Shown: piece after piece, positions 30,001-33,000 of the stretch
How the letters are laid out: each line of letters opens with the position of its first letter
How positions within the stretch are numbered: the first letter of the stretch is position 1
DNA from: a virus
Lineage: Duplodnaviria > Heunggongvirae > Uroviricota > Caudoviricetes
Virus record (IMG/VR): IMGVR_UViG_2563366900_000004
DNA length: 39,499 nt
Direction: 5' to 3' (one strand)
Made by a program: the position numbers

Positions 30001-33000
30001 CGATGCGTCGATGGTTCCGCTCTGAATTGGTTCACGCATTTCATCCATGATTTCCAGCACCAGACGGCGGTGATAGTTATCCGCGACCATTCCAGCATAT
30101 CCCTTCAGGTTTGCGGAACTCGGGCAGTTTTTGCTGGTCATCAGGATTGACGTGAAATGCTCCTCTCCGCACGCCTCGGCAACCATCAGCGCGTCGATTA
30201 GGTTTCTGTTTCGCGCCTGCTTGCGGATAACCTCGAAGGCTTTCCGGTAGAGCGGTATTGAAAACGCTTCCGGCTCAAGCGTTGCCAGAACGTCACTGGC
30301 AATTGGTGTTAATCCACCAATCAGCAGGCCACCGATAACGCTCGCTTCGATATCCTGTTTCATGCAATCCCCCTGTCTGCAAACTTCCCTTCCCGAACTC
30401 CCGTTAACGAATCTTCCCTCAGCAGGTAATCAAAATCTGCCGTCCAGCCCGTGTCGTTGTCTCCGAAGTAAAACGGCTTGGCCTGATGCACAAACGCCCT
30501 GACATACGCTCTGAAACCGTCCACGTTTGGCGTTTTCAGTTGCGGGATGATTTTCTTCAGGCGGCGTTTGCGTTTCTCGTTGACCGCAACAGCGTGTGGA
30601 AGCCTGTCACCGACTTCGGTGTTGTAGGCGTTCAGGAAGGATTCGTAGTCGATTCGTTCTGCCTTGCGACGTTCAGGTTTAACCTGCCCATCGCCTCCCC
30701 CATTGGGGGGTAGGGGGGTATTATTTATATTCTTGTTAATACCTTCTTGTTCATGATGTGCGGTTGTTTGTGCGGCTTCATGTGCGCTTTCATGTGCGGC
30801 ATGTACGCTGAAAGCCGCGCCATTACTGGCTTCATCATGTGCGGCATCATGTGCGGTTGTTTGTGCGGCTTCATGTGCGGGGGAATTGTCCATTTTTTGA
30901 GCGTATTCATGGTAATTTGTGATGGTGATCACACGACCTTTTTGCTTCTCTCCATCAATGGAGATCATCCCCTCTTTCACAAAAACCTGAAGCATCCGCT
31001 CAACCTGATCACGGCTTGCCGGCTTGCCATGCCTGTCGCATAACTGAAGACCTAAATCAGCTGCTGTCACAACCAGTTGACCGGGTTGCAGATGCCATTC
31101 ATGACCTTTGAAATTCGCTTTGTATGGCTTTCTGGCGGCATTCAGGAGAAGGTTTTCCCACAGGGTGCGAAGATAAACATCTTTCGCCCATGACTGTTTC
31201 AGAATGCTCCGGTACAACGGAATGTAACCAGTTTTCTGGTTCTCCATCCTGTTGCTCCTGCGCTCGTGTGCGGCGCTGAAATCGTAGATTTTTGCTGTAT
31301 TGCTCATCACTACCTGCCTTGACGAAAGACCTTAAGAACATCGTTAAACTGACTTACGGATATGTCTTCTTTGATCAGCTTTTCCAGAAATGCGTTTGGA
31401 ATGAACGTATATCCCTCCTCTTTTGGTAGAGACGGGAGCAACGCCCTCGCCTCAGCCTTCAGAAGCTCAGTTCTGGCAACTTTCACAAAAGAGATTTGAG
31501 TTCTTTCATCAATGGAACGAAGGAAGCGCAAACGCTTAGCTTCTTTGTGTGTATCAGGTGGATTAAAGCCTTTGTTTCGCATATAATTACCTCGTTGGAT
31601 GTTATTAAAATTCCATTTGTATTTGATCAGAACGCTCGGTTGCCGCCGGGCGTTTTTTATTGGTGAGAATCGAAGCAACTTGTCGTGCCAATCGAGCCAT
31701 ATCGTCGTCAACGACGCCCCATTCAAGAACAGCAAGCAGCATTGAGAACTTTGGAATCCAGTCCCTCTTCCACCTGCTGATCTGCGACTTATCAACTCCC
31801 ACAGCTTCCGCTGTCTTCTCAGTTCCAAGCATTGCGATTTTGTTAAGCAACGCACTCTCGATTCGTAGAGCCTCGTTGCGTTTGTTTGCACGAACCATAT
31901 GTAAGTATTTCCTTAGATAACAATTGATTGAATGTATGCAAATAAATGCATACACCATAGGTGTGGTTTAATTTGATGCCCTTTTTCAGGGCTGGAATGT
32001 GTAAGAGCGGGAATGTCTTAAGCGGCTTTGTGTTCCGGAGGGAACACGTCATCAAGACTGACTTTTGCGCCTAACTTGTTTAGGCATGCAACAAGAGCGC
32101 GGCATGTTTTAAGGTCTGGGAAGCGACGACCAGATTCCCAATGTCCGATAGCTCCCTGTGTGCATCCAACTGCCTTAGCAAGTGTTGTTTGAGAGATATT
32201 CAGTGACTCTCGATATTTTCGTAGGTTGCTCATATGCCCTCCATAGTAACCATGAAACAATAATACGATATGTACTTTTAGAATGCAAACAAAAAAATAC
32301 ATCTTGTGCATGGATGGTTTTAGTACAGAGCGTAATAATAAGGGTATGAAAATGAAATGGTATGAACTGGCTAGATCCAGAATGAAAGAGCTCGGCATAA
32401 CTCAAGAGAAGTTAGCTGAAGAGCTTGGTATGACGCAGGGTGGAATTGGTCACTGGTTGCGCGGATCTCGTCATCCATCTCTTGACGAGATTGGTGTGGT
32501 GTTTAAATACCTTGGTATTGATAATGTCTCATTCAACCACGACGGTACATTTTCACCTGTTGGCGAATACTCATCTGCCCCCGTTAAAAAACAATATGAG
32601 TACCCTGTTTTTTCTCATGTTCAGGCCGGGATGTTCTCGCCTGAGCTTAGAACCTTTACCAAAGGTGATGCGGAGAGATGGGTCAGCACAACCAAAAAAG
32701 CCAGTGATTGTGCGTTTTGGCTTGAAGTTGAAGGTAATTCCATGACCGCGCCAACAGGATCCAAGCCAAGCTTTCCTGACGGGATGTTAATTCTCGTTGA
32801 CCCTGAGCAGGCTGTTGAGCCAGGTGATTTCTGCATAGCCAGACTTGGTGGTGACGAGTTTACCTTCAAGAAACTGATCAGGGATAGCGGTCAGGTGTTC
32901 CTACAGCCACTAAACCCGCAATATCCAATGATTCCATGCAATGATAGCTGTTCCGTAGTAGGGAAAGTTATCGCCAGCCAGTGGCCTGAAGAGACATTTA

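Follow-up and report, generated by a model that had tools for sequence, protein, structure and literature searches.

The DNA analyzed here is the virus record IMGVR_UViG_2563366900_000004 (Caudoviricetes), a stretch of 39,499 nucleotides (39.5 kb) that is referred to below as the window and is the genome of a P22-like (CUS-3-like) temperate phage. An O-like replication initiator gene was called on its minus strand as an open reading frame (ORF) at 30360-31310, encoding 316 amino acids (aa) counted from a GTG start, while the CUS-3 annotation of O starts at an ATG one codon inside it. This gene harbors an array of short direct repeats with an AT-rich block beside it, and its stop codon is overlapped by the gene of a DnaB-type replicative helicase (28987-30363, minus strand; Pfam DnaB_C, E 1e-77, and DnaB, E 7e-13). 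The Pfam domain Phage_rep_O (PF04492) was detected on aa 21-133 of the initiator (E 3.4e-15, 56.8 bits, with the cut-off at 28.7), PHROG 345, 'replication initiation O-like', matched it with an E of 2e-100, and 30360-31310 shares 98-99% identity with the O genes of CUS-3 (98.4%), JEP4, Gally, HF4s and a large group of Stx2a-converting phages. Taking together the clustering of the cores, the gene context, a lambda-like position and polarity, the repeat geometry, the constraint on the DNA, the covariation with the initiator, the inheritance of the region as a mosaic unit and the conservation downstream of the cores, we consider that 30718-30880 is probably the replication origin of this phage, lambdoid in build and with iterons of a different type (a probability of roughly 0.8, judged from comparative sequence evidence).

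Architecture of the Iteron Array

The heptamer TGTGCGG was found 11 times on the two strands of the window, against 5.25 copies expected, and seven of these copies are located on the plus strand inside 30757-30880, the other four being placed elsewhere on either strand. With a Poisson model, the odds of at least seven copies in 124 bp are about 1e-16 per interval of that size, and below 1e-11 after correction for all positions. A further copy with a single mismatch, TGTGCGC at 30781-30787, stands in phase with the others and brings the total to eight cores. Seen from the coding strand, each unit is an 8-mer made up of CCGCACA and a final T or A (CCGCACAT/A), and the eight 8-mers occupy 30756-63, 30768-75, 30780-87, 30792-99, 30837-44, 30849-56, 30861-68 and 30873-80 in plus-strand coordinates. 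Iteron block 1 (30837-30880, minus strand), the first in the direction of O transcription, reads CCGCACAT, CCGCACAA, CCGCACAT and CCGCACAT, and iteron block 2 (30756-30799, minus strand) reads CCGCACAT, GCGCACAT, CCGCACAA and CCGCACAT. Both blocks of four keep a strict phase of 12 nt, or four codons, and the spacer between them (30800-30836, minus strand), which encodes DEASNGAAFSVHA, sets a start-to-start jump of 45 nt between the core that ends block 1 and the one that opens block 2.

Tandem Repeats Finder (TRF) independently reported two period-12 arrays, at 30769-30800 and 30833-30880, and an exact pair of 31-nt direct repeats was located at 30756-30786 and 30849-30879, 93 nt apart. The initial annotation of this stretch had described about eight TGTGCGG cores, two direct repeats of roughly 31 bp and an adjacent AT-rich block, all inside an O-like gene, and each of these features was recovered, the eighth core being the TGTGCGC copy. 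The cores are asymmetric and share a single orientation, with no inverted arm inside the array; the dyad iterons of about 19-20 bp in four to six copies that characterize lambda, P22/HK97 and 933W were not found.

Several further candidates were set aside. A degenerate, out-of-phase TGTACGC within the spacer (30802-30808) has no conserved counterpart slot in the relatives and, from this comparison, is probably non-functional. An isolated exact TGTGCGG at 31267-31273 (coding strand CCGCACAC, O aa 13-15) is not part of the system: its next base is C and not T or A, relatives sharing the cores of the window lack it in their leaders, a near-copy of the motif occurs in the Salmonella phage S.Inf 5-2, whose iterons differ, and it has probably arisen by chance. 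No other iteron-like array was detected in the window by TRF, which returned, apart from a heptamer repeat (2044-2143), just two short repeats of two copies each. A promoter and terminator scan of 30300-32300 gave nothing above chance within the array, the 'terminator-like' call at 30770-30787 consisting of two adjacent cores that pair weakly, and short ORFs in other frames across the array (30725-30910, minus; 30747-31043, plus) were treated as by-products of the repeats. DnaA boxes (TTATCCACA, at most one mismatch) numbered 12 against 9.4 expected, with none in or beside the array and the nearest one-mismatch box at 30222; a DnaA-dependent origin design is not supported, as there is no excess of such boxes.

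When one genome per bacterial species was scanned with the N-domain alignment, 47 prophage loci were recovered, with N-domains 67-87% identical to that of the window, in Enterobacter, Citrobacter, Xenorhabdus, Yersinia, Brenneria, Pantoea, Proteus, Atlantibacter and other genera. The comparison set, in which three phage loci were added and three degraded or distant loci were dropped, comprises 44 arrays and extends over many genera of the Enterobacterales. A spacing of exactly 12,12,45,12,12 or 12,12,12,45,12,12,12 was observed in 32 of the 44, most of the others being off by one degenerate slot. The 45-nt jump is present in 39 of the 44 loci, and also in distant relatives, and conservation is moderate in the spacer's first half.

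The AT-Rich Block and the Position of the Array

Along the direction of O transcription, the last core is immediately followed by TCATGAACAAGAAGG, which gives way to an A/T run. About 15 nt past the last core are invariant, with approximately 2 bits per column, third codon positions included, and they contain the box CATGAACAAGAAGG (30742-30755, minus strand). In each of the 44 loci, the 25 nt or so that come next have an A/T content of 80% or more, with the sequence itself drifting. The motif GAACAAGAA of the box is also retained in relatives with different cores, namely the Enterobacter phage ENT1, S.Inf 5-2 and a Sodalis prophage (L054), and this invariance despite differing iterons suggests that the box could be recognized by something other than the N-domain, for instance a host factor or the helicase, or could be the start of unwinding.

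The AT-rich block, a presumed DNA-unwinding element without strand assignment, extends over 30718-30757 and has 77.5% A+T and a free energy (dG) of -42.1 kcal/mol. It holds the least stable 30-mer and 40-mer of the O and helicase genes (the 40-mer ranks 1 of 2284) and ranks among the top 0.16% for the window as a whole. Beyond it, at the start of the C-domain module, lies a G/C-rich near-palindrome (30695-30717, no strand; coding strand CCCCCCTACCCCCCAATGGGGGAGG) in a region that encodes PLPPNGGG, where TRF reported two copies of GGGGGGTA at 30705-30720. The near-palindrome also occurs in HK97-type and S.Inf 5-2 genes, and similar CCCCC..GGGGG motifs were observed in S.Inf 5-2, ENT1 and two further loci (L047 and L052). 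By its location, it may be the counterpart of the inverted repeat that lambda has to the right of its AT-rich region.

The lambda record carries four annotated iterons at positions 349-433 of the 900 positions of gene O (39-48%), followed by an AT-rich region at approximately 39122-39161, the least stable 40-mer of which has a dG of -43.0 kcal/mol and 77.5% A+T. The array of the window covers gene positions 431-555 of 951 (45-58%), between the N-domain (to about aa 142) and the C-domain (from about aa 195). Both systems therefore place their repeats within the initiator gene, between the parts coding for a Phage_rep_O N-domain and a C-domain, and in both an AT-rich block of nearly equal stability (-42.1 and -43.0 kcal/mol) follows directly downstream, with an inverted repeat after it. 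The repeats themselves differ, in that lambda has four iterons of 18-19 bp with internal dyad symmetry, 20-24 bp apart, whereas the window has eight 8-bp cores in one direction with a 12-bp phase and a fixed 45-bp step. Lambda iterons are bound by O dimers. The eight cores at a pitch of about 12 bp resemble the half-sites of four lambda iterons in number and spacing but not in orientation, and the contrast between one-direction cores and dyads suggests, by analogy, head-to-tail rather than head-to-head binding of O. The lambdoid in-gene origin that the initial annotation had proposed agrees with all that would be expected at the sequence level, with the refinement that the iterons appear as 8-bp asymmetric units and not as lambda-like 19-bp palindromes.

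The repeats might also be O-binding sites that are mainly regulatory, acting in autoregulation, as a roadblock in O or in copy control through the pairing of arrays, with replication starting elsewhere in the replication region. The evidence for initiator binding described below, that is, core constraint and covariation, would serve this explanation equally, and the array does lie inside the initiator's own transcript; moreover, plasmid iterons serve both initiation and control. However, the array directly borders the DNA that is least stable within the replication genes and, in every relative, an invariant box, its position and polarity are those of the annotated lambda ori, and no second iteron-like array was found by TRF in the window, so we regard a mainly regulatory array as unlikely.

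Constraint on the DNA and on the Encoded Protein

The origin reading places the selected feature in the DNA, and the constraint on the cores was measured in slots set by geometry alone in order to avoid circularity. Six slots per locus were used, three reckoned forward from where the N-domain ends and three backward from the CATGAACAA anchor downstream, giving 264 in total. Their consensus is C (82%), C (99.6%), G (99.6%), C (81%), A or G (48/52), C (96%), A (94%) and T (88%), while the four positions between cores carry 0.3-0.4 bits and are nearly unconstrained. The three synonymous core positions hold 1.0-1.96 bits, whereas third positions in the adjacent, well-conserved N-domain average 0.81 bits. 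The codon before the core always ends in C, across codons for P, A, S, G and T, the Ala codon of the core is only GCA or GCG and is uniform per locus, and His is encoded by CAT 234 times and by CAC once. In contrast to the cores, the peptides between them vary (HEAA, HKAA, HTSA, QITA, HNGA, HYPA, QFPA and others).

The array of the window is translated into SPAHEAAQTTAHDAAHDEASNGAAFSVHAAHESAHEAAQTTAHHEQEG, with 15 Ala and eight His in 48 residues, which bears out the His/Ala-rich linker of the initial annotation. Since the synonymous core positions are fixed and the residues between cores are free, this linker does not appear to be the selected feature; as judged from the alignment, selection acts on the core DNA and not on the protein, and the linker is a by-product of the NCC-GCA-CAT motif. 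The opposite explanation, in which the repeats are kept for the protein as a duplicated His/Ala-rich linker, metal-binding or serving as a spacer, and the DNA period results from in-frame duplication, agrees with an array that is in frame (12 nt being four codons), always encodes x-Ala-His/Gln and sits between two folded domains. Besides the near-fixation of synonymous positions and the freedom of the residues between cores, it is opposed by distant relatives in which this geometry of the nucleotides is kept although the encoded peptides (VEGSDEPPVE, PDEPCDKPSD) are entirely different, and we consider it very improbable.

The Initiator N-Domain and Core Specificity

For the N-terminal part of the initiator (30885-31247, minus strand; aa 22-142), a winged-helix DNA-binding domain was predicted with AlphaFold2 and Foldseek. 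The AlphaFold2 model, with a predicted local distance difference test score (pLDDT) of 76, contains three helices, the third at domain residues 79-91, with an insertion of three strands between helices 1 and 2 and a wing of two strands after helix 3. Helix 3, corresponding to aa 100-112, is the predicted recognition helix, and residue 101 is the second residue in it. All the PDB neighbors reported by Foldseek are winged-helix DNA binders (CodY, CRP, MarR and ArsR families, ORC), with weak E values of at least 7e-3, and a PDB sequence search with O gave no relative at E ≤ 10. With generic matches only and no PDB relative, there is no solved DNA complex usable as a template for the binding mode.

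Position 5 of the core is either all A or all G within a locus, and a single discordant core was observed in only three loci. Such uniformity within an array at a synonymous site requires selection or concerted evolution. Two core groups can be distinguished, one with CCGCACAT, which includes the window, and the other with CCGCGCAT/CCGAGCAT. Residue 101 follows the core type without exception, with Asp in A-type and His in G-type loci; the Arg that appears in this column in two loci is an artefact of a 1-aa insertion in an ungapped comparison. Strong covariation was also observed for aa 83, with which helix 2 begins, and, within the wing, for aa 118, 119 and 126. Helix 3, the start of helix 2 and the wing are the canonical DNA-contact elements of the winged-helix fold. 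The association with the core type is weaker for columns of the N-domain's first half, and that half is itself mosaic between the groups, as seen in comparisons of L035 with Yen210 and of L041 with the window.

Distant Relatives, Variants and Mosaic Structure

The 12/45 geometry is retained with other cores in phages and prophages whose N-domains are only 45-47% identical. ENT1 has a spacing of 12,12,45,12,12 with the cores GTCGAAG/GACGAG, S.Inf 5-2 has an exact pair of 34-nt blocks, separated by 69 nt, with the cores CCGATGAA/GCGATAAA, and the Sodalis prophage, from a metagenome-assembled genome (MAG), carries a doubled array at 1857-2053, spaced 12,45,12,27,12,12,45,12,12, with the cores CGATACA/CGGTACA. 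In all three, the GAACAAGAA box lies past the last core and is followed by an A/T run. Their recognition helices start with S-A-K, S-P-Q and S-K-Q, respectively, as against S-R-D and S-R-H in the two main groups.

A 271-bp segment with the array was found in 281 of 5426 complete Escherichia coli genomes, and its annotation there is always just 'replication protein'. One of the 281, E. coli O25:H4 CU568-3 (L056, NZ_CP082775.1, 1501-1678), has a precise in-frame deletion of 93 nt between the 31-nt repeats, which leaves a single block of three cores in a gene that is otherwise intact. One block, in a frameshifted gene, was also observed in a Symbiopectobacterium MAG (L052), and in Xenorhabdus ehlersii (L012) a stop codon follows block 1; these two loci are probably decaying prophages. 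The rarity of one-block forms among the sequenced loci argues that two blocks are needed.

The C-terminal domain module of O (30360-30736, minus strand, starting from ..NTPLPPNGGG) was delimited by the limits of megablast coverage, by the HK97 annotation and by protein comparison. This 3′ third of the gene is 96% identical at the DNA level to HK97 gp54, ST104 gene 18, the Stx2 phage 1717 and others, and in all of these it is paired with a DnaB-type helicase. The 5′ part with the array (30724-31260), by contrast, matches only the Klebsiella phages 2b LV-2017 and Mulock and the Yersinia phage vB_YenM_210.17, with 77-81% identity, and in these phages a lambda-type C-domain (..SSENSGESSD..) follows, and then a lambda P-like loader. 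The mosaic junction falls at 30724-30736, in or just past the AT block, which indicates from sequence comparison that the N-domain, the iterons and the AT block are one heritable unit, while the C-domain travels with the helicase or the loader. Lambda likewise has N-domain and iterons as one exchangeable module, and such a division of labor between the two O domains is classical for lambda O.

Very improbable, too, is that the segment is mainly a recombination joint, a 'boundary sequence' conserved for the shuffling of lambdoid modules, for although the N-domain and array meet two alternative C-domain modules at this junction in the AT block, and the CUS-3 record annotates boundary sequences elsewhere, this would leave the 12/45 geometry, the homogeneity of the cores and the covariation with the recognition helix unexplained, and the modular exchange of initiator domains would on its own produce a junction bordering a functional origin.

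The N-domain homologues listed from a large protein collection (P0001-P0072) are all at most 211 aa long, many of them being entries named 'replication protein, partial' on short contigs. Short-read assemblies may often break in or near the repeat array or at the mosaic junction, or the short lengths could be an artefact of collecting candidates for a 121-aa query.

Comparison with Known Iteron Origins

Distinct repeats inside gene O or gene 18 are taken as the origin in lambda, P22 and phage L; P22 gene 18 contains four repeats of about 20 bp, and gene 18 of phage L carries six imperfect 11-bp repeats, TGTCCAACGGA, that were predicted to be the origin from sequence only (bioRxiv 10.1101/2020.10.05.325894). 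The system of the window resembles P22 gene 18 and HK97 gp54 in its in-gene repeats, its DnaB-type helicase partner (gp12 and gp55, respectively) and its C-domain module (96% identity to HK97 and ST104), and it differs from lambda in having this phage helicase in place of the P loader. The N-domain is unrelated to that of HK97, which has four palindromic iterons of about 20 bp of the ATTAGCCGACTTGGCTAAT type with 20-24-bp spacing, like lambda and P22, and no CCGCACA was found in the HK97 gp54 gene. Phage L is alike in having short repeats of about one helical turn in the initiator gene, so variants with short repeats had already been noted, from sequence only; however, the core sequence differs, and the L initiator was absent from the tblastn relatives of the present N-domain at E ≤ 1e-5.

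The iteron origins of theta plasmids (pSC101, R6K, P1, RK2) likewise combine same-direction repeats, a winged-helix initiator and an adjoining AT-rich element, and plasmid Rep monomers are, by analogy, a plausible model for monomeric head-to-tail binding. However, plasmid iterons are 17-22 bp long, spaced at about 22 bp, located outside the rep gene and usually accompanied by DnaA boxes, whereas the window has a 12-bp period, an in-gene array and no excess of DnaA boxes. The Pfam scan of the initiator detected Phage_rep_O only and no Rep_3 domain. Given the period, the in-gene position, the DnaA boxes and the missing Rep_3 domain, a plasmid-type Rep/iteron origin was rejected. No earlier paper describing this iteron type was found in the searchable literature, to which the subscription-journal papers on HK620, Sf6 and CUS-3 did not belong, and the full-text matches to CCGCACA were unrelated primers.

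A Model for Initiation and Its Weak Points

If 30718-30880 is the origin, the winged-helix N-domain of O would bind the eight same-direction cores (CCGCACAT/A) in their two blocks of four. The complex of O with the cores would then destabilize the adjoining box and AT block (30718-30755), which would melt, in analogy to the O-some of lambda; a 12-bp pitch on DNA of 10.5 bp per turn would favor under-twisting, provided that the bound proteins line up. The HK97/P22-type C-domain would recruit the phage's own DnaB-type helicase, encoded immediately downstream, as suggested by the pairing of the two modules across phages and by what is known of P22 gp18 and gp12. In the fullest version of this model, winged-helix monomers or head-to-tail oligomers would occupy 8-bp cores every 12 bp in two blocks 45 bp apart, under-twisting would aid the melting of the GAACAAGAA box and the AT block, and Asp101 or His101 would set A or G at position 5, giving two origin specificities that do not cross-react among otherwise similar phages, a group of Stx2a phages among them. 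As a combined proposal this is possible but rather doubtful, and it is put forward tentatively.

Several observations weigh against the interpretation of the segment as an origin of this kind. Sites in the same direction every 12 bp do not put successive proteins on one face of B-DNA, and the binding mode is without direct precedent in the family, lambda O binding palindromes as a dimer. The covariation of Asp/His with A/G may stem from one or a few evolutionary events, and linkage could contribute to it, the codon of residue 101 being about 130 nt from the array. A contribution at the protein level is possible, as the cores always encode x-Ala-His/Gln and may be held in part for that. In addition, a natural one-block variant exists in CU568-3, and no experimental data on this initiator type were found in the searchable literature.

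Other Features of the Genome

The early-right operon, to which the initiator region belongs, is encoded on the minus strand and contains cII (31605-31958); a cro-like helix-turn-helix (HTH) gene lies in the early-right region, and the cI repressor gene (32283-33005, with Peptidase_S24 and HTH domains) is on the plus strand. A strong hairpin resembling an intrinsic terminator, with 12 pairs and a T run, was observed on the plus strand at 31629-31656, where it runs antisense to cII at the 3′ end of that gene. Both location and orientation fit the terminator of an oop-type antisense RNA; an Rfam scan of the whole window matched no family, this hairpin included, and does not indicate an RNA element.

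At the other end of the window, 2044-2143 is a perfect tandem repeat of the 7-nt unit GAGTCTT (14.3 copies; AAGACTC on the coding strand). It lies at the 5′ end of a gene for a hexapeptide-type acetyltransferase (minus-strand ORFs 1988-2146 and 1398-1733) that adjoins the gene of a 981-aa tailspike (2300-5245), and which we take to match the phase-variable neuO O-acetyltransferase of CUS-3. With 14 heptamer copies, the leader ORF stops after 52 aa, out of frame with the body of the enzyme, and this reading frame suggests a phase-OFF state.

Significance

The placement of an origin inside the initiator gene is the textbook lambdoid design, and finding it in this phage is no surprise. The initiator/iteron module, on the other hand, appears to be uncharacterized, and its iteron architecture differs from those of lambda, P22 and HK97. 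For this module, the analysis defines a probable origin together with a simple candidate recognition code that relates core position 5 to residue 101. The module is spread over E. coli, CUS-3-like K1 phages, prophages of Klebsiella, Yersinia and Xenorhabdus, and the large Stx2a-converting group. Replication proteins serve to divide Stx2a phages into subtypes, and toxin production correlates with the subtype (PMC4645166), which makes knowledge of the origin that belongs to each replication type relevant to the question of Stx2a. Overall, the fixed 12/45-nt geometry with interchangeable cores offers a convenient natural system for studying how the specificity of an initiator evolves while the coding frame is kept intact.

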